DNA of 64,000 nucleotides, from IMG/VR virus record IMGVR_UViG_3300037852_000055, positions 1 to 64,000 of that record; one strand, 5' to 3'. The translations under genes were made by a program, and so were the position numbers. This DNA comes from a virus. The notes below the pieces were generated by a model. That model worked only from the letters and a program-made list of their open reading frames with translations, was not told where the DNA came from and did no database searches. This document shows, in pieces, positions 2-50,434 of the stretch. Position 1 is the stretch's first letter. Each line of letters begins with the position of its first letter.

Positions 2-1975
2 GGCCCCGATGGGGTTCCTAGGGCTCTTATTAGCACTTCTTCTAGTGGTGTGGCTACCGCCCCCACACTGGCTTTACCAGGGGTAGTGGGAAGAAATGTT
101 AATGCTTCCACTGATACTATTGTTTCTACTGATTGTAATCCAAAGAGGATTCAGTACCTATTTTCAGGTACAGTGGCTGTAACCTTACCTACAGCCACAA
201 CTCTTGGAGACTCTTTTTGTAGTTTTAAACTTTCTATACCCAGCAACAGTAGCACTACATCTATAACTGTTACCCCCACAACGTGGACTATAAATGGTAA
301 TAGTACCCTCGTACTAAGCACAGGAGAAACCGCTAATATTTATGTAGATCCAAGTAGCAGTACAAATTGGCAAGCTGATTGTGTTCCTGTGTGTGGAGCT
401 TTGACTAACAACGCACTTCTAACAGGGGGGAAAGCTATCCAAGCACCAGTTGCAACGGCTACTTTAACTTCTTCTTTGATTTCTTTGCCTGTACCCGGTG
501 TTTTTGTGCCTACAACTATCAGTGCTTCTGATGCTTTAAAGTCAGACTGTACAGCTACCAGTACAAACACAGGAAATATTTTGGATCTTATTGGAAATCC
601 AGCATCAGCTGCTTCAGTATTTTCTGTTGACTGTGTTACTGGAAATGTTACAGGCAGTGGTACAGCTACATTGGCAAAGGTTATTGGCACTGGAGGCGTG
701 TCTGCTACAAGCGGATCAGTTAGTGCTGGGTCAACTACTGTTACTGGGGTTATGTGTCCCAGTGGAGTTACGGGGGCGTGGTGTGCAGCGGAGGGCTCCA
801 CCGCTGGCACTCCAACTGCGGGGGGAGATTACCTCCGAGCTGATTCTACGGCACATGCTTATAAAGCCTCTTTGAATAATGGTGCAGAGTTTTTATCGGC
901 GGTAAATGCTTCTTTGGCCCCTACAGGAACCATTGCGTTATCTTTTGCATCAGCCCCAGCCGGATCTAAATGCGTACAAACTAGCGGTACAGCGGGACTA
1001 GTTACAGAAGCATCCAGTGCCTGTGGCTCCGGTGGTAGCCCTAGTCTTGACCAAGTTACAGGCTCAGCTGCTCAAGCAACGGGAACAGAAACTGCAGCTG
1101 GACATGAATATACTTTTGCAGGAGTGGAAACTGCCAACCTAACTTCTCCGTTTTCTTTCACTGATGCTAACTCTACGAACAATAATACCAATGGCGCGGT
1201 TATCATCGGCACTACTGGGACAAGTACCGGAGCAGTACCTCTGCGAGTTAACGAAGCCACAGCAGCAGGTGATTTGATTGACGCTTACAATGGCGGAACA
1301 GTTACGAATGGAGTTCTCTCAGGGGGAACCAAGGAATTTGGAATCAGCGCAACAGGAGCGTTGAATGCTCTGCTCTCAATCAGCACTACGGCATCTTCCC
1401 CAGCTTGTACAGCTGGAACAGCCGGGTTCTGGTGCGGAGCGGAAGGCACAGCGTTTACAAATGCTTCAAGTACAGCAGGAATTTATCCAGATTCAACTGC
1501 TCATGAGTTTTTAGCTAAAACAAATGGAGCTTCGTCAACTGGGATGATGCTTCGTGCTCAGCCTGGTTCTATACGATCTACGGGGTTAGTTGCCGCAGTT
1601 TCCACAGCAACTTTATGTGCAGCTTCAGCTGGAGCTTGTAATACCCCAGGAACTTATGCAGTAGATATTTCCCTTTACCAAAGTGGCACAGCCTGTACTG
1701 CAAACACCACTGGAGGAGTTACTCCTTCCTTGACGTGGACAGATGGAAACGGTACCTCCCATTCAGCACAAGGCATACCTCTTGATACCAATGTAAGTGC
1801 AACTGCAGTTACTGGAACTATGGTTTGGGGAGCTACTACTTTAGGAGCATGGGGAAGCGGACACATAGTGATTGATACTAATGGTTCTGTTATTCAGTAT
1901 GCTATTGCCTTTGCTCAATGTGGTACTGGAACAGCAACCTATGCGGCAAGCTTAGTGACTACGAGGTTACAATAA
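2..1975 (+). CDS. Tail-fibre/adhesin-like structural protein, 5'-truncated by the window edge
   Basis: Frame is open from position 2. Thr/Ser/Gly/Ala-rich with an internal repeat (WCAAEGS..DSTAHAYKA / WCGAEGT..DSTAHEFLA). Confidence 0.55.
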   Translation, partial: GPDGVPRALISTSSSGVATAPTLALPGVVGRNVNASTDTIVSTDCNPKRIQYLFSGTVAVTLPTATTLGDSFCSFKLSIPSNSSTTSITVTPTTWTINGNSTLVLSTGETANIYVDPSSSTNWQADCVPVCGALTNNALLTGGKAIQAPVATATLTSSLISLPVPGVFVPTTISASDALKSDCTATSTNTGNILDLIGNPASAASVFSVDCVTGNVTGSGTATLAKVIGTGGVSATSGSVSAGSTTVTGVMCPSGVTGAWCAAEGSTAGTPTAGGDYLRADSTAHAYKASLNNGAEFLSAVNASLAPTGTIALSFASAPAGSKCVQTSGTAGLVTEASSACGSGGSPSLDQVTGSAAQATGTETAAGHEYTFAGVETANLTSPFSFTDANSTNNNTNGAVIIGTTGTSTGAVPLRVNEATAAGDLIDAYNGGTVTNGVLSGGTKEFGISATGALNALLSISTTASSPACTAGTAGFWCGAEGTAFTNASSTAGIYPDSTAHEFLAKTNGASSTGMMLRAQPGSIRSTGLVAAVSTATLCAASAGACNTPGTYAVDISLYQSGTACTANTTGGVTPSLTWTDGNGTSHSAQGIPLDTNVSATAVTGTMVWGATTLGAWGSGHIVIDTNGSVIQYAIAFAQCGTGTATYAASLVTTRLQ

Positions 1976-3129: not shown

Positions 3130-5035
3130 CAGCATTTTAATGACTATGCTTTTGTTTTGTACCTGTGCTATAGCACAAGGCACAATTACGCATATCATTT
3201 CTATAAAGAAGGAAAACCGTAGTTTTGATCATTATTTTGGAGCCTATGTTACACCTATTAGCGGTTCAGGTATTGCTTCTTTTTGTACTGGAGGCACTGC
3301 CCCAGCATATCCAAACCAAGTAAAATGCTATGCTCCCACTGACCCTACTAGTGCTTGCACTACTTATTCTGCTACCTGTGTAATGCCGTATACGTTGGCT
3401 CCTCAGGCTTTGCTTAATGAAAACACTGGAACAGTCTATGCAGATGTTGGGCACACTCGTGGTAATTTAGTAAATTATACCGATGCAGGAGCAATGGATG
3501 CCTTTCCAACCACCGGATGTGCTAGCGACACAGCAGCACAAGCAAATCAGTGTGCTTATGCATATTTTGATAGGACTAAACTTGTGTATTATTATTCTTT
3601 GGCAGATGCCTACGGTTTAGAGGATAATTTTTTTTCTAGCCAAACTCCCACCGCTCCAGCAGCTATGATGTGGTTTGCTGGGCAAGACAATGGTTTAGGT
3701 GATAATCCAATCACCACTACTACAGGAAGTTATACCTGTACAAATGGGCCAAACATTGGGGCAAATGCTCCAAGCTGTGTGGCAGGCAGCGATGCCACGG
3801 ATTGTGGAGCTGGAACCCCTCAGTGTAATGCAACATATAAGACAAACTGGACATGTGATGCAACACATACAGGAACATCGGCACCTTTTACATACACTGG
3901 GGACTTTGCCTCAGTGTCTGGAACGTATACGAGCGGAGTTTCTGGTAAGCTGTACTGTGTAAATCCCATTCTTAACCATGTAGCTACCAACGGTGTAACC
4001 TGTACTTCTAATGCCGGGTGCACAGCTCCTTATGTGCAGTGTATGGGAACAGGTTTTTATGGAGGACAATGTTCTACAGGTGGAGCAGCGTGTGTATGTT
4101 TTAATGGAAATGGATTGGCTAACGGACTAAACGGGTCTAGACCTGCAACTTGTACTGATGTAGCTGATTGTTCTACTAGTCCCAACACTTGCAATACTTC
4201 TACCAGTGTAGGTGCAGCCCTTGGAGCCCCATGTCCTAATCTCACAACCATTGCAGACCAATTGAATGCTGCCAATGTTACGTGGCATTACTACACTAGT
4301 GATCAAGCACGTAATGGTTCTGCTATGTTTCAAACCACTCGTTATGGAAACGCTGGTACATCAAAATCCTTTGCATCTAATAATTTTCCAGATACACAAT
4401 TTGCTATTGACGCAGCAGCAGCAACTGGAGAATGTACCACTGGACATGCTGTATGTACAACAGACGCTAGTTGTGGAGGAAATGGGCCGTGCATTGATAA
4501 CCCAGCTAATGCCCTTCCAACTGTTGTGTTTCTTAGTGGTTCTGGATCTACAAATGAGCACCCTGGTAATGCCGTTAGCACTGGGGTAGCGTGGACACAA
4601 ACACAGTTAAATGCGGTGTTTAATAACCCTTACTTATACAATCATTCTATAATTTTTATGGCCTATGACGATTCTGGTGGGTTCTATGATCATGTCTATC
4701 CACCGATGAGTGACGGTGTGAGTTATGGTATGCGCGTTCCTTTTATGTGTATTGGCCCTTATTGTGTTCATACTATAAACCATTTGCAAATGGGATTTGG
4801 TTCTACATTGAAATGCATTGAGCAATTCACTGGAGCTGCATCCATTGGTAGCCGTGATTCCATAGAAAACGATGCATGTTTTGGCACAGGCACTAAGGCA
4901 AGTCCTGGAACTGGAGCCAATGCAGGTATGGTTAATTTATCGCAATCTCCTATACCAGTGCCTGGAAACACTACAGTAGGGGCCTCACAAATTAATCAAG
5001 GATCGTTGTTGCCTCAAGGATCAGCTATTCAATAG
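3116..5035 (+). CDS. Secreted phosphoesterase (phospholipase C / acid phosphatase AcpA-PlcH family) with Cys-rich inserts
   Basis: Family motifs ENRSFDHYFG, NEHPG, YDDSGGFYDHV.PP, GMRVP; AAGGA RBS before ATG 3116; signal peptide MKKISSILMTMLLFCTCAIA. Confidence 0.85.
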   Translation: MKKISSILMTMLLFCTCAIAQGTITHIISIKKENRSFDHYFGAYVTPISGSGIASFCTGGTAPAYPNQVKCYAPTDPTSACTTYSATCVMPYTLAPQALLNENTGTVYADVGHTRGNLVNYTDAGAMDAFPTTGCASDTAAQANQCAYAYFDRTKLVYYYSLADAYGLEDNFFSSQTPTAPAAMMWFAGQDNGLGDNPITTTTGSYTCTNGPNIGANAPSCVAGSDATDCGAGTPQCNATYKTNWTCDATHTGTSAPFTYTGDFASVSGTYTSGVSGKLYCVNPILNHVATNGVTCTSNAGCTAPYVQCMGTGFYGGQCSTGGAACVCFNGNGLANGLNGSRPATCTDVADCSTSPNTCNTSTSVGAALGAPCPNLTTIADQLNAANVTWHYYTSDQARNGSAMFQTTRYGNAGTSKSFASNNFPDTQFAIDAAAATGECTTGHAVCTTDASCGGNGPCIDNPANALPTVVFLSGSGSTNEHPGNAVSTGVAWTQTQLNAVFNNPYLYNHSIIFMAYDDSGGFYDHVYPPMSDGVSYGMRVPFMCIGPYCVHTINHLQMGFGSTLKCIEQFTGAASIGSRDSIENDACFGTGTKASPGTGANAGMVNLSQSPIPVPGNTTVGASQINQGSLLPQGSAIQ

Positions 5036-32454: not shown

Positions 32455-32826
32455 GGGGCTGTTGCCAGCCCCACTCCTTCGCTTTGTCTAGGCAGTTGCC
32501 AAGTCATAGCCCTGATCCCCAATGGGAAACAGGAAGTTAGCTACTCGGCTGATTAGGCCTTTGCTGTAGTTGGCTTTTATTGGTTTACGTGTCCGTTGTA
32601 TTCGCGTGGCCACGTCATTCGCGGCTAGTCCAGTACCCTTTCAACATTGCAATCGAAACTATTTCACGCCCAATAAAGAAGCATAACATAGCTTGTGCAC
32701 ACACCTAGTGACTGGGTTATCGAGGGGATGCAGTTGGGTTTATGCTTCTTTTGGTGGACGTGGCGGTTTCGCAACCGCGTCTTGCAACGGAAAACATACC
32801 TTCATACTAGCGTATTCGTGGGCACC
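32455..32826 (-). ncRNA. ssrA: Circularly permuted (two-piece) tmRNA
   Basis: Minus strand: acceptor piece ..GAC-GCGGT-TGCGAA-ACCGC-CACGTCC-ACCA (3' end 32752); 80-nt intervening segment closed by a 12-bp stem; coding piece starting GGGCGTG-AAATAGTTTCGA (32671). Acceptor stem has G3.U70 and A73. Tag frame 32574-32488 reads ANYSKGLISRVANFLFPIGDQGYDLATA*. Confidence 0.9.
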
Positions 32827-33058: not shown

Positions 33059-33199
33059 CTCAGGGCTTCCGAAGTGCCGTAGTAACCAGCAGGTTTCCAG
33101 TACAAGATCACTAGGACTAACGGCGTGTTGTTCCTAGTTTGTGAAAACATATACCGTGCAATCCCTTTATCCAGTGTGCGGCACTACGGTAACCCTGAG
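33059..33199 (-). ncRNA. Long-stem-enclosed structured RNA / RNase III-like site
   Basis: 21-nt arms CTCAGGGTTACCGTAGTGCCG / CGGCACTTCGGAAGCCCTGAG; internal ACTAGGA/TCCTAGT hairpin. Confidence 0.55.
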
Positions 33200-43782: not shown

Positions 43783-43914
43783 AATGCCCTCCGTCACCTA
43801 GGCATCATAAGGGCTGTGCCTTGTATTGCCATCGTCTGCACGCACTGAGTCAGGGAGAAAACCTAGTTACGCCTAGTGCAGCGGCAACTTGATACCTAGA
43901 TGACGCAGAGCATT
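43783..43914 (-). ncRNA. Long-stem-enclosed RNA / RNase III-like site sequestering an RBS
   Basis: AATGCTCTGCGTCATCTAGGTATCA pairs with TGATGCCTAGGTGACGGAGGGCATT using G.U on the minus strand; the 3' arm holds GGAGGG. Confidence 0.6.
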
Positions 43915-43930
43915 CGCTCTGCGCTAATAG

Positions 43931-45400
43931 TTATTTGTTTCTTAAAATATCAAAAGCTTCTGCTATGCCATGTTTAGCAAAATCATCAGGTAACCCCGCT
44001 GCACGCATAATTTCTTTAGCAAGGTCTACAAACTTATCGTGCCAGAAGTTTGCAGAGTTAACTTGATCATCCACAAGTTTAATCAATTCTTTTCGACTCT
44101 CAAGGAAATACATATCCCCATACTTGAGTCTTCCTTTTTCAGCGGCGAAGTCAAACAGTTGGAAGGCATATTGTTTCTCTGTGAACTTGGTATCAAACAT
44201 AGACTCCTCCTTTAATACTTGCATGGTACAGGCCGTTGCCTGTTGTTCTGTTGCTCCACCAGCTTAAGCACTGGTTCTACATAGTCGCGTGCTACGTCTA
44301 TCTGAGGGTCAAGGTAGGTATCTCGGTAGGTTTTCGAGTCATTGTACGTGAGCACAGCTTTCTTGGTAACACGCACAGGTTTACGCTCAGACCAACGACA
44401 CTCTGCACCTAAGCCTTGTATATCTACAAAACCCCAAGGGGATTTAACAATTACATGCCCCGGTGTTTCTTGTTCATCCAACTCATCCTCAGTGAACAAA
44501 CCATATATCGGCCACTTGGTTTTCTCGTTCATTGCCAAGGCGAAACTGTGGCACTGTCCTCTGGTAAAAACCTTCTCTACTTCTTTGCTAAGAATACCCT
44601 TGGGAATTTGAGTTTCATAGTCTGTTCCAAATACCAAGTAAGTGACATTGCAGTATTCCATGGCTTACTCCTCTGGTGTATTCACGGTTACCTTACCGCG
44701 TTTGCTTGGGGGCAGACACTCGATTAAGTCCCCAAGGGTTAGGTCTTTGATCTTGAGCCTAGGCAATAGGTCACGAAGATCGTAAGGCGTCTGTTGCATC
44801 ACGGCATTGTCTGGGGATGCCCACAGTAGAAACTTGCCATCGTAGGTATACACAGTGCCTATCAGGTCTTGCAAGTGCTCAAGAATTGTCTTAGGCATAA
44901 TGCCCTGTTGCATCCGAGAGTGTATCCACGTTTTCTACCCTTGGGGCTAAGTACATGATCTGCTCAGGCGTAAGTTCCCCAGAGCACGCCTTGAGGTACG
45001 TTGCTTCGTTCATCCATTCCCGGTGGGAATTGTCATAGGACAAACCCTCGGATACCTCTAGTTCAGTGATAAGTGATTCGGCATCGTACACCCCAGAGCC
45101 GCACTCAGAAAAATCAACTCCGGCTCTCACTTAGCACCGCCTTTGGGTAATGCTTTGTACATTTCCTCGGTGAACATAACTTCCCCACGTTTACGCTTGG
45201 GCACAGTCTTGAGTGTTTCCCGGCGCTGCTTGTTGCTCAGTGGTTTCTTCATTGGATTCTCCTTTAATTTCCATCGCTTTGTGTTGTTTGTGTCTTGGGC
45301 AATAACTACCGTCACCTGTTTTCCATAGACAACGGTTTACAGGGCAGAGCTTCCATGGATGATTCAGCTTGTCCTCGGCCACTTTGCTAGCGGTACTCAT
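43931..45400 (-). other. Small hypothetical early CDS (43931-44224, 44212-44661, 44665-44913, 44891-45130, 45127-45315, 45191-45400)
   Basis: Packed ORFs; 44212-44661 has FTRGQCHSFA..H...DI.G pattern. Confidence 0.5.
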
Positions 45401-46101: not shown

Positions 46102-46299
46102 CTAATTCACCTTGGCAATCAGGCCATCCTTCATTGTTACACTGGCAAACCACTTGCGCTGATAAGGGGAAGGCCCAACAACAGCAAAGGTGCCATTGTC
46201 TTTGTACTCAGGGCCAAAAAATCTTGTCTCAACATAGCGCAGTGCTTTACCAACAGATTCCTTCAAGGCTTTCTTAGTCGGATAGCTAGCTCCCATCAT
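46102..46299 (-). CDS. Conserved small phage protein
   Basis: YPTKKALKESVG..L.Y.ET..FG.EY..G; GGAGGG RBS before ATG 46299. Confidence 0.7.
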   Translation of the reverse strand: MMGASYPTKKALKESVGKALRYVETRFFGPEYKDNGTFAVVGPSPYQRKWFASVTMKDGLIAKVN

Positions 46300-46300
46300 T

Positions 46301-47370
46301 GTGATACCCTCCGTACACTCTGTAGCCAATCCACGAATGTCACGCGGCCACGTCTAGGAATTGTGCGTTTATCTACAGAGTGTACGCAAGGTATCACCCT
46401 TGCGTTACCAGTGCCATTGCGGAGTAATAGGATTAAGGTTTGCAGTTGTGCTCCCAGACACTACTCTGGTTTAGCTCCTAGCGTGGTAGTGTGTATACAT
46501 GCTAGGCTTATTTGGCTGCGTACAAACGGGACGTTATCCCGTTCCTACTACTCAGTAATGGCACTGGTATTCCTTAGCACTATGCTGAGTCTTACAGGAG
46601 TCGAACCTGTATCACGCACTCGCCCTGCTATGGGTACTTCTAGAGTGCTGCTAGTCCCCTATGATCTAGCCAAAGTTTAAGACTCAGCATAGTGCTAAGG
46701 GTAGTCACCAGCACCTTAGTACTTAGCAGATACTTGGAAGGCTACACCGTACATTTTTAAGCACCTTCCGGTGCCGTGGTAGTGATACATCGAAGGTCTG
46801 CTAAGAATTAAAGTGCTGGTGGTAGTCACCTTGCATTGGCATCTTATTGTACATGCTGGTAGGTTTCTCAGATGGGTCACTCGCGTCTATACTCCTAGGC
46901 ATTTTTCGGTTCATCCTGGGCACACAATGGACGGTTCACTCTGTCGTTCTCTTTGTCAGCTTGTACAAGACTTTGGACTGAGCCAATGCTTGTGGTGTCC
47001 TGCTTTATCCCCTGTCACTCTCTCGCGCAGTGGGAAGGTATATCAATCGTATACCTGTGATGTACGTTGCACAATACAGTCGCTTGGAGTGTGCCGTGTT
47101 TGCGGCCTAGCTGGTACTCAGGCGATTACACAGCCTTGTCCCATGCTCCATGCCCGGTTTGTGCCCGGTTCATCCTCTGCCGTATCTTGATACCAGAGTG
47201 ACAATCACGCCCTGTCACCACGATGTAGCCTTTGCGTTCTGGCCTCAACGGTTTAATTGTTGGAATGCGTACCGTCCGGTAATGGCGCTCTGTACGCTAT
47301 CAGTTCGGCTATCCGTGGAACCGTCCGCTAAGGGCGCTCTGTCCACTATCGGCTTACCCGCCGAACGTGA
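46301..47370 (-). ncRNA. Array of long-stem-enclosed RNA modules
   Basis: Inverted-repeat units 46301-46397, 46406-46569, 46572-46700, 46706-46821, 46833-46989, 47013-47203; tandem motif 47267-47350; promoter directly upstream. Confidence 0.7.
46572..46700 (-). ncRNA. tRNA-like RNA inside a perfect 23-bp stem
   Basis: T-arm ACAGG-TTCGACT-CCTGT, GCTAG/CTAGC D-like arm, GCACTC/GAGTGC arm with 21-nt loop, no CCA. Confidence 0.65.
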
Positions 47371-47374
47371 AGCT

Positions 47375-47403
47375 AGACTAGTGGAATAGCAAACCATTGT
47401 CAA
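47375..47403 (-). promoter_or_regulatory. Sigma70-type promoter for the RNA array
   Basis: TTGACA-N17-TAGTCT, just downstream of an intrinsic terminator. Confidence 0.7.
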
Positions 47404-47464: not shown

Positions 47465-47495
47465 AATGAAAAACCCCGGCACGGATGCCGGGGCT
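47465..47495 (-). terminator. Intrinsic terminator
   Basis: CCCCGGCA-TCCG-TGCCGGGG followed by TTTTTCATT on the minus strand. Confidence 0.85.
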
Positions 47496-47706: not shown

Positions 47707-49175
47707 CTATTGTAATACCGCGTATACCCTTGAGTAACGCGGTGCTGGTGTCTTGGCTGTGCTAGGCACTTCCACAGGTGTCCCCGGCAGTTCCCTAGCT
47801 TTGGCTACGGTTTCGGCAATGTCCTGGTCTATGACTTCCAAGACGTGTGCCGTGGTTCGCGCTATGCGTACACCCTGGGAGTGAACGTCATAGGTGTCAA
47901 GGCCTATGCGGGTGATGGTTGTCATTAGAGTAAGTCCAAGTGGTCACTGCCGCACCGATTGCAAAGCCATCCGGCTTCGCCATCAGCCTCGTCAAAAGCC
48001 ACTAGTTCAAAAGCAGGGTTCAGGTCATTGTTGAGTGTGCCGTTGCCACAGTCCTTGCATACGCCTTGCAGTGGCAGGGGTTCATTCTCATCTATTAACG
48101 CATAGACTGTGGCTGCATACGCATCATCATCTACAATGTGTCCTACAGCTTCGCTCCATTCTGCCTCAGTGATTCTCTCACCTTGAGGGTTCCTGTAAAT
48201 ACCGTCCTCTGACATTGGTATACGCTCCGTTTTCCGGCCACCTAAGGCCTGTAGTCTAGTTAACTCGCACAGCACACTCCCAAGGTATGCTGTACACGTG
48301 CTCATTCACAAACTCATAGCCCATGATGAACTTGAACTCCCCAAACCCAACCAAGTCAACCTCGAACCCATTGGGTGTTTCTCTGACGTTCTTGGCTTCC
48401 GGCCAGTACAACCATGAGTCGTTGCCAGTGCGTGCATTCTTCATGGCAATGGCATTGCTACGCACGATAACAACAGGCCGAATATCACCCACAGCAATTC
48501 CCGGCTTGATTACTGACTGCCCAAGGTTGCCATTGACAATCAAGGGTTTCAGCCAGTCATGGCGCACCAGTTTCAACAGTGTGCCCTTAACCACTTTGCG
48601 TTTGATCGAAGCTAGACTCACAGGCCACCTCCTATGGCTTTGAAAAATGTTTCTGGTTTGAACCTCGGGTTATCCCGTTCCAGTTCCCTTGCCAGCAACC
48701 TAGCAAGGCCTTTGATTGTTTCGGTACGCTCAACTTGCCAACCTTCGGATACAGCAAGTTCACGCCCAAGGAACCGCGCCAAGAATTCGTAATGCCGTTT
48801 CTGAAACTTTGCTGCCATTGTTCTACGCTCCTTGTTTCTGGCACAGTACATGCCAAGGTGTCATACTGTCTAATTTTTGCATGAGGATGCCGCCATGCAC
48901 TTCCCAATAAACCAAGGCATCCTCATAGGTAGGGAACACTCTGCGGTTAACTTCATACTTTGGGTAGGTTGTCATTAGGCTGCCCATCCTATGTCACAAA
49001 GAACAAACCATTTTCCGGTAGCCAAGCATAACCCTAAGGTTTTCCCTTTGACCGACTTGGCTTTGATAATGCGATACCACTCCCCATCAGGGTCAATGCC
49101 TAGGACTTGAGGCCCATGGCCATTTTCATTTTCCCTAATGTCTCGGTTAATCTCACGTGGAGTCATCATAGACAA
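47707..49175 (-). other. Small early CDS (47707-47925, 47925-~48215, 48256-48621, 48618-48851, 48975-49175)
   Basis: GGAG(G) RBSs and coupling; first genes after the divergence region. Confidence 0.55.
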
Positions 49176-49189
49176 AACCCTCCAGTCTC

Positions 49190-49265
49190 ATTTTAGCAAA
49201 CGCCTAGGCAATTGCAACAACATAATGTAGCGGTGCCAGACTCAGGTAACCACAATTAGTAGTGT
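49190..49265 (-). promoter_or_regulatory. Early promoter with tandem NrdR-box-like operators
   Basis: TTGCAA-N16-TAAAAT with extended TG; CCGCTACATTATGTTG (49218-49233) and ACACTACTAATTGTGG (49250-49265), 32 bp apart. Confidence 0.55.
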
Positions 49266-49269
49266 ATAT

Positions 49270-50400
49270 TTGTACCACCAATAGTAAAGGCCTAACCCGA
49301 AGGCTAGGCCCTTGTGATTCGCTCGATATGTACAGGCTACTAACCCTGCATAACCTAGCCCTCCTCTGGCTGTGTCCAGTTCCTCAAAAAGGTTGAAAAG
49401 ACTCAAGCACCTTAGCATACCGCAAGGAACAAGTCAAGTGTACATTTATACGCTTGTCTCCCGGCTTACAAAGGTCTGAATACTCTATAAGGACAGAGGA
49501 GTACACGATCATCGTTCCTAGGCCTTCCCTGTGCCAGCAAACACTATCCTAGGCGTAAGACCTAATACCAGTATCTATGCTTCTTTTCCAGTGTAGTGCA
49601 CCTAGCTTGGAACCATGGGTGTTGTAGTCAAGTATAACACCATAACACACCTAAAGAATCATACACTTACAAACGCATGTAAAGTATGCTTGACAATGCT
49701 AGGCTATTGACCCATGGGTTTCCCTAAGCATTGTCCTTTGGATTCAATCACTTAGCTTTACCCAAGGGTTCACTGTGTATATACAGTTGCCCTGTCTCCT
49801 ATTGCAAACCCTTGCGTATCCACGGCATAAACCCCATGGGAAACCCTCAGGCAAACCCCCGGCATTCTCCCCTGTCCCTCTCCTCTAGCTCAGTACACAG
49901 GTGGCTCGGTTCCTAGGCGTACATATTTATGCGTTAACCCCAACCTGGTGCCCTTCCTCAGGTTTGGCCCTAAACTTGCTCAGGCTTTCCCTTCGCTGTT
50001 TCTTCGCCCCGCTTCGCCTTTTGTTCCCTAGCTGGATTGCGTTCCTAGCCCCGTACAGCCCCGAACGTACACTTGTACGCCCTTGACCCCACCCACCTAA
50101 TATCTGACGATCCTAGGGGAAATACAAGAATCCATATTTAGCGAAGACAAGGCGAACCCAGGCCCAGTTATCCACAGGTACTCAGTGGTTACCCTTTGGG
50201 CTGTGCCTATGCACATCCTAGGTAGTAACAGAGTAGTAACATTGGGAACACCCAATGGGTTAGAGCTTAGGTAGTAACCAATGGGTACTGCTTTGGGTTA
50301 CCAGTGTTGACCCCAGAGGTACCCCTTGCAAGGCACTCCACCACACGTCGCGGGGGTGGTCACGTTTGGTTTTTTCCCTATGCGTGTGGGCCCCTATGAT
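49270..50400. other. Non-coding divergence region (possible origin or genome terminus)
   Basis: No credible ORF; transcription diverges; many CCTAGG/CCCATGGG palindromes; GTAGTAAC three times at 50222-50278. Confidence 0.45.
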
Positions 50401-50405
50401 TTCCC

Positions 50406-50434
50406 TTGTATTCTTAGGCCTCTTATGGTATAAT
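50406..50434 (+). promoter_or_regulatory. Sigma70-type promoter
   Basis: TTGTAT-N17-TATAAT with extended TG. Confidence 0.6.

Follow-up and report, generated by a model that had tools for sequence, protein, structure and literature searches.

Host RNase III cuts the early messenger RNA of phages T7 and T3 at the hairpins R0.3, R0.5, R1, R1.1 and R1.3, by which messages are separated and stabilised and translation can be activated. Each gene junction of T7 has one such site, a single irregular hairpin of about 50-60 nt that contains an internal loop. Here we analyse a 1.1-kb gene-free stretch, at positions 46301-47370 of the first 64 kb (hereafter, the window) of a virus record from IMG/VR (IMGVR_UViG_3300037852_000055). 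This stretch is a head-to-tail string of long, near-perfect hairpins, which we call the array; its units are numbered 1 to 5 along the minus strand. As in T7 and T3, long helices are placed between a phage early promoter, here a candidate one, and early genes, or between early genes. In contrast to the T7 sites, the array consists of four or five helices that stand head to tail, uninterrupted by genes; each has 23-27 near-perfect base pairs and encloses 47-110 nt. It has no sequence similarity to these sites, and its cleavage by RNase III is a prediction.

Other RNAs share parts of this plan. YrlA, a Y RNA, carries its tRNA-like part in permuted order with respect to the terminal stem. Unit 3 of the array follows the same general plan, joining a long terminal helix to a T arm and a D-type arm, but keeps the ordinary order of a transfer RNA (tRNA). 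A search of the whole 100-kb record gave no TROVE (Ro60) match, while the controls were detected, and no Y-RNA family of Rfam matched at E <=10, so that we rejected this identity. The TMERs of murine gammaherpesvirus 68, a eukaryotic virus, depend on polymerase III and on processing by tRNase Z and Dicer, and carry a tRNA-like head on every unit. Like these RNAs (reviewed in PMC4378190), the array is a viral tandem of non-coding units joining a tRNA-like fold to long hairpins, with host enzymes as the putative nucleases; the fold, however, is found in only one of its five units. The Correia repeat-enclosed elements of Neisseria measure about 100-160 bp, with terminal inverted repeats of about 26 bp around a core, and their transcripts fold into hairpins that are bound or cleaved by RNase III, altering the expression of adjacent genes (PMC2649163). 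The units of the array resemble them in size and in the long terminal inverted repeats enclosing a core. Correia elements, however, occur as one family in many copies, have conserved termini and show a TA target duplication, whereas the array units are single-copy and dissimilar, with a flanking duplication around one of them.

Table 1. Features of the array and its immediate surroundings, in window coordinates.
Feature	Position	Strand	Description
Intrinsic terminator of the upstream transcription unit	47465-47495 (scan: 47472-47495)	minus	10-bp G+C-rich stem, 4-nt loop, T-run
Candidate sigma-70-type promoter	47375-47403	minus	TTGACA (47403-47398), N17, TAGTCT (47380-47375)
Paralogous leader hairpins R1 and R2	47271-47350 (R1 47320-47350, R2 47271-47301)	minus	conserved loop, differing but complementary stems
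Weakly structured leader part	46990-47270	minus	takes in the originally predicted unit 47013-47203; 8-bp closing helix only
Unit 1	46833-46989	minus	irregular stem (8 bp, internal loop, 12 bp), from repeat finder and minimum-energy fold
Unit 2	46706-46821	minus	25-nt arms, 88% (22 Watson-Crick; 3 non-Watson-Crick in all, 1 of them G.U); 66-nt cargo
Unit 3	46572-46700	minus	23-nt arms, 100% complementary; encloses a tRNA-like cloverleaf
Unit 4	46406-46569	minus	27-nt arms, 89% (24 Watson-Crick; 3 non-Watson-Crick in all, 1 of them G.U); 110-nt cargo
Unit 5	46301-46397	minus	25-nt arms, 92% (23 Watson-Crick, 1 G.U on the minus strand); 47-nt cargo
Alternative hairpin, 8 bp	46384-46405	minus	linker ACGCAAGG (46405-46398) pairs without mismatch with CCUUGCGU, which lies in unit 5's 5' arm
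Conserved 65-aa phage gene, phrog_37117	46102-46299	minus	PHROG match E = 2.9e-16; first gene after the array

The original prediction had tiled the stretch with six inverted-repeat units. The four at 46301-46821 (units 2-5, 97-164 bp long) are robust and unit 1 folds as well, whereas the sixth, 47013-47203, is unsupported: the minimum-energy fold does not use its 8-bp helix. The last five units had been placed 2-11 nt apart, and we measure gaps of 8, 2, 5 and 11 nt from unit 5 to unit 1. The perfect 23-bp stem of unit 3 is found as announced; unit 4 does have 27-nt arms, with three non-Watson-Crick positions (one G.U) instead of the two mismatches given earlier. That the region holds no credible open reading frame (ORF) agrees with our results, the longest on the minus strand having 54 and 40 codons and none of six region ORFs tested on both strands matching Pfam.

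A chance origin of the four strong stems is excluded. In 1000 dinucleotide-preserving shuffles of 46291-47380, only 8 gave any arm of at least 18 nt, and the longest reached 20 nt. Ten repeats of this class (arms of at least 18 nt) occur in the 100-kb genome as a whole, four of them in the array, while 780 kb of unrelated phage loci yielded 23, about one per 34 kb. Folding on both strands, a check proposed with the original prediction, gave z = -6.6 to -8.2 for each strong unit on either strand; the 554-nt upstream half of the region folds with z = -2.5. Without their closing stems, the cargoes fold no better than shuffled sequences (z = 0.08, -0.10, -1.78 and 0.74), thus the long closing helices are the exceptional feature.

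The surroundings of the array suggest that it is part of a minus-strand transcription unit. The genes flanking it on either side lie on this strand. Upstream, the terminator claimed originally was also called by our terminator scan, and its plus strand has no T-run; between the promoter and the downstream gene the scan called no terminator. The promoter claim held in part: both hexamers are present with a 17-nt spacer, and the -35 element is perfect, but the -10 element matches the consensus at three of six positions, which is why the scan did not call this promoter. Some support comes from the nearest usable relative (G004), which has TTGACC-N17-TAGTAT upstream of the same 65-aa gene. Judged from these hexamers, a promoter function is plausible.

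The last unit covers the translation start of the 65-aa gene, whose family is confined to viruses and has no known function. In unit 5, the 3' arm holds GGAGGG (46312-46307), the Shine-Dalgarno sequence, which is separated by 7 nt from the ATG at 46299; in the intact stem it is paired with CCUUGC of the 5' arm. The alternative 8-bp hairpin formed by the preceding linker (-15.5 kcal/mol, z = -3.0) would free the 3' arm bearing the Shine-Dalgarno sequence. Unit 5 and the linker together have the layout of a three-part translational switch, and may work as one.

We tentatively favour the reading in which the region is a cis-acting RNA leader with RNase III-type stems, which would also gate translation of the next gene. 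The transcription unit would start near 47375-47403 on the minus strand and run into the 65-aa gene, its leader being composed of two small paralogous hairpins, a weakly structured stretch and five head-to-tail modules. Bacterial RNase III needs about two helical turns of double-stranded RNA (20 bp or more), a length that all four strong stems reach with their 23-27 bp. These four near-perfect helices would be the working part: as double-stranded RNA of a length that host RNase III cuts, they would cause the leader to be cut into pieces. Cutting or remodelling unit 5 would uncover the ribosome-binding site in its 3' arm, and the competing 8-bp hairpin would offer a second way to open this unit. 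Most cargoes would probably be passengers; the one in unit 3 would be a tRNA-derived or tRNA-mimicking fold.

Similar modules occur elsewhere in this phage group. The window phage has single long-stem modules between genes at 33059-33199 and, beyond the window, at 73698-73785, and another in non-coding DNA at 50013-50156. For the modules 33059-33199 and 50013-50156, the gene strand gives the more stable fold, by 8-16 kcal/mol. Module 33059-33199 (minus strand) and positions 43900-44014 of G004 both lie just upstream of the transfer-messenger RNA (tmRNA) region, with arms of 21-25 nt and cargoes of 65-99 nt; they share no sequence similarity, and the G004 one has four G.U and no A.C pairs on the gene strand. 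In another relative's locus (L007), the modules 3377-3481 and 3842-3975 have arms of 18-23 nt, enclose 59-98 nt and stand just before the 65-aa gene and the gene preceding it. At the place of the array, G004 itself has a promoter, a leader of 400 nt, an ORF of 112 aa and, immediately before the gene, a single long hairpin (24-nt arms, 75% complementary). This ORF was considered as a possible HNH-type endonuclease; Pfam gives no support and we do not claim it.

Module 73698-73785 (plus strand) has a homologue at 439-527 (minus strand) of G004, although the two phages are about 50% diverged, and their stems differ by two compensatory double changes, T-A to G-C and C-G to G-C. A short hairpin just before the gene that follows this module is conserved too, with a compensated pair (CAGACT/AGTCTG versus CCGACT/AGTCGG). 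In a further relative (G006), a tRNA-Asn precedes the same downstream gene at the point where the window phage and G004 have the module; the downstream gene cassette, judged by synteny, has moved, and a direct swap of tRNA-Asn and module is therefore ruled out.

Altogether, long-stem modules are likely an RNA-level device of this phage group, which does not prove that the units of the array act likewise. Over 16 modules of the clade, the non-Watson-Crick positions on the gene strand comprise 16 G.U and 7 A.C, an excess that points weakly in the RNA direction. The buried Shine-Dalgarno sequence and the single modules between genes make us prefer a leader for processing and translational control in cis to a free-standing operon of small RNAs.

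On the array itself, the 100 arm positions divide into 92 Watson-Crick pairs, three G.U (minus strand), two A.C and three other mismatches. With helices so near to pure Watson-Crick, and three of the four strong units folding just as well on the plus strand, the wobble pairs of the array alone cannot reveal the acting strand. Two facts favour the minus strand, namely the match of unit 3 to a tRNA model and the stability of unit 5, whose fold reaches -47.2 kcal/mol there versus -41.6 kcal/mol on the plus strand, a gain of 5.6 kcal/mol.

Several points weigh against the leader that we favour. Stems nearly all Watson-Crick, with three G.U to set against two A.C, are equally what palindromes at the DNA level would show, and units 2-4 fold equally well or better on the plus strand. 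The clade-wide excess of G.U over A.C is weak, with a one-sided binomial p of about 0.05 by our own calculation from the counts. Transcription is read solely from promoter, terminator and strand, and the array has no homologue, which puts its structure beyond a covariation test. The need for four or five stems where one would do is unexplained. The phage record contains no RNase III gene. Finally, in most relatives the 65-aa gene has a promoter directly upstream, without hairpins, so the leader is dispensable for this gene.

The array carries traces of its own growth. As the original prediction had it, there are two units that GGTGACTACC precedes; its copies lie at 46821-46830 and at 46700-46709. 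The 5' junction GGTGACTACC...AGCACT is common to units 2 and 3 at 16 of 19 positions (p = 0.005), and the three stem positions that differ are compensated on the other arm. The cargoes of units 2 and 4 share ATGTAT(ACA)CACTACCACG (p < 0.005): this 16-nt motif reads ATGTATCACTACCACG in unit 2 (46790-46775) and ATGTATACACACTACCACG in unit 4 (46500-46482), where it sits in a hairpin loop. AGGATGAACCG is found in both of the two upstream units, and of only five copies of ACTACCAC in the 100-kb genome, all of them minus-strand, three are in the region. The array had been described as organised by structure and not by sequence; its units do differ in sequence, but these short common traces suggest duplication. 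As a clade-wide motif GGTGACTACC was rejected: where 2.9 near-matches would be expected in the window, five occur, and the relatives' loci add one independent match.

The motif shared by units 2 and 4 begins with ATG, and its two copies differ by an in-frame 3-nt indel (MYHYH... versus MYTHYH...; 46716-46880 and 46473-46500, both minus strand). The unit 2 copy falls inside the 54-aa ORF, which has no Shine-Dalgarno sequence and no Pfam match. The motif is probably non-coding.

The array probably grew by local duplication together with template-switch events, which would make inverted repeats in a single step. Perfect hairpins can both arise and be maintained by template switching (PMC8794818). 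The complementarity of the arms could have been kept either by selection or by templated repair at the DNA level.

These observations also bear on a reading that we consider rather improbable but take seriously, in which the units are DNA-level palindromes devoid of RNA function. [quoted passage not shown] Stems that are near-pure Watson-Crick and fold equally on both strands, and cargoes that resemble random sequence, are in line with this, as is the capacity of template switching to make and maintain such hairpins (PMC8794818). Unit 2 has ACTAC on both flanks, a perfect 5-bp duplication, and unit 3 is flanked by ACTAC and AATAC; no such duplication, however, surrounds units 4 and 5 or any of the 12 similar modules of the clade. 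Phage genomes are reported to contain MITE-like elements, most frequently those of phages assigned to Acidobacteriae (PMC11602168), and the sole GenBank phages that match the locus infect an acidobacterium. Like MITEs, the units have a short non-coding core between terminal inverted repeats of at least 10-15 bp, but they do not occur in multiple copies: every unit is single-copy in the phage, and no common terminal sequence defines a family.

Four independent events 2-8 nt apart, after a promoter and with the last one covering a Shine-Dalgarno sequence, would moreover be an unlikely accident, and the related module 73698-73785 is conserved with compensatory changes. Exact-arm scans found no copy of the arms of units 3, 4 and 5 in IMG/VR; in 185,579 species genomes, scanned for the arms of units 3 and 4, they found none either. 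Such scans would miss diverged copies, and may not reach records that very closely resemble that of the window.

Comparison with relatives indicates that the array is lineage-specific, as far as the sequences searched can tell, which also fits the palindrome reading. We retrieved 22 viral and 80 metagenome loci with the 65-aa gene; the array has no homologue in any of them, and in most the gene is not preceded by a long hairpin. Nucleotide similarity to all of them ends at the ribosome-binding site, around 46312. In the closest homologue of the 65-aa gene (86% identity, L112), the array is missing and a promoter stands directly before the gene. The array likewise has no homologue in five whole related virus records and no second copy in the phage's own genome, and a distant-mode search of GenBank phages matched only the downstream gene, in two Tunturiibacter phages. 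Homology between the leaders of the window phage and G004 was rejected: their local alignment is at shuffle level, and they have only a short loop motif in common. As for the neighbouring genes, the upstream 126-aa gene has no relatives in IMG/VR, and the downstream 175-aa gene is too widespread to inform the comparison.

The enclosed sequences could instead be the point of the locus. In an operon of small RNAs, which we regard as unlikely, a precursor would be cut at the stems and the released cargoes would be stable RNAs acting in trans as decoys, mimics or antisense RNAs; unit 3 would then act on tRNA-directed host enzymes or defences, as a decoy or as a mimic of their substrate. Functional cargoes, which this reading needs, are favoured only by one shared motif and by the cloverleaf of unit 3 (46586-46685). 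The T arm of this cloverleaf, ACAGG-TTCGACT-CCTGT, is canonical and is followed by AAGACTC, which pairs with GAGTCTT in a 7-bp acceptor-like stem, and its D-type loop contains GG. By our own estimate, chance would yield a T arm this good fewer than about 1e-3 times in the region. The unit matches the Rfam tRNA model RF00005 on the minus strand only, with 27.1 bits (E = 0.00048), below the 29-bit threshold; this score was obtained by searching 46560-46712 alone, and the match is not listed in the search of 1.9 kb or of the whole window.

The match derives from the acceptor stem and the T arm, whereas the D and anticodon regions are aberrant. The anticodon position is occupied by a 21-nt loop where a tRNA has 7 nt, ARAGORN does not call unit 3, and CCA is lacking. 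That unit 3 is a copy of a related phage's tRNA was rejected, the matches being limited to generic T-arm ones.

The small-RNA operon also accords with the 16-nt motif common to units 2 and 4, with the concentration of ACTACCAC in the region and on the minus strand, and with a G+C content of 0.50, the highest in a neighbourhood that is otherwise at 0.42-0.48, as is often the case for RNA genes. The folds of the cargoes, however, are at shuffle level, no cargo is kept in any relative searched, and none has a complementary target of notable length in the phage genome. Apart from the sub-threshold tRNA match, Rfam at gathering and lax thresholds gave only chance microRNA-like matches to plain hairpins, and no RNA family for the other units. 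Among the kinds of partner protein checked (Ro60/TROVE, reverse transcriptase, RtcB and RNase III), all are absent from the phage genome searched. Yet more doubtful is the specific version in which RNase III punches stable small RNAs out of the precursor, including a tRNA mimic whose acceptor stem is sealed; these would act in trans, their targets being tRNA-directed host enzymes or RNA-sensing defences.

Three further RNA classes were considered and set aside. Four lax local searches (E <=10) revealed no self-cleaving ribozyme of the twister, hammerhead, pistol, hatchet or hepatitis delta virus-like type, though strongly expanded variants could escape them. Type III toxin-antitoxin RNA of the ToxI kind does not fit, as the units are unrelated but for short motifs and the downstream 65-aa protein belongs to no family of known function. 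A retron msr-msd is opposed by the lack of any RVT_1 match in the whole record, where controls were detected.

Long perfect inverted repeats can also extrude as cruciforms, and the units might serve as hairpins of single-stranded DNA or as cruciforms in replication, recombination or packaging, for instance in priming or as a stop or pause in DNA entry. We hold this for very improbable. An origin-like region 2.5 kb away (48908-50432) does have inverted repeats of its own. The array, however, is not A+T-rich and contains no iterons; it lies within a same-strand transcription unit, between promoter and ribosome-binding site, and the syntenic G004 has no counterpart.

At the start of the leader, directly after the promoter, the hairpins R1 and R2 form a 31-nt direct repeat, 87% identical and spaced 49 nt. 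Their stems, GUGGA/UCCAC and GCGUA(C)/(G)UACGC, differ by two compensated pairs. The 20-nt loop motif GCC..TA[GC]CGG.C.GT is present here and once in the G004 leader (position 3265 of its locus, L010), and nowhere else in the six genomes examined; a scan of IMG/VR with this motif found no homologue of the array. The fold energies of R1 and R2 are unexceptional (z = -0.35 and -0.91). Their position would suit an element of the protein-binding or antitermination type.

If the stems are cut and unit 5 gates translation, the locus would be an unusually elaborate phage use of host RNase III to time an early gene, and the leader would also be a natural example of how hairpin modules are born and multiplied. 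If the cargoes are stable RNAs, a tRNA mimic and several unknown RNAs would join the short list of phage non-coding RNAs, with a possible role in counter-defence; if they are punched out by RNase III and act in trans on the host, they would represent a new class of phage RNA operon, ordered by structure instead of repeated sequence. As an orphan in one uncultured phage, the locus is a well-defined and cheaply testable candidate, not an established new system.

The source record has 100,044 bp and is about 90% complete. It comes from a tailed, uncultured phage with two tRNA genes and a permuted tmRNA. ARAGORN finds tRNA-His and tRNA-Asn in the window and nothing else; with 2 tRNA genes, the window phage (G000) has the fewest, against 5, 5 and 10 in G004, G006 and G001. 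G004 (108 kb) shares about 60 genes with the window phage at 40-60% amino-acid identity and in conserved order, and G006 (101 kb) has only structural and replication genes in common with it.

The 1.5-kb region 48908-50432 has no ORF of at least 70 codons and marks the point from which early genes diverge. It contains the short repeats CCCATGGGT, CCTAGG and GTTACTACC (twice) and the inverted repeats 50013-50156 and 50178-50288, and it looks like the repeat-rich stretch upstream of the same operon in G004 (L010, 1560-2300). It is possibly a replication origin.

The permuted, two-piece tmRNA gene lies at 32553-32811 on the minus strand (Rfam tmRNA_permuted, 64.2 bits, threshold 47). G004 has a permuted tmRNA as well, and there the segment between the two pieces is closed by an inverted repeat with 22-nt arms (G004 44075-44160).

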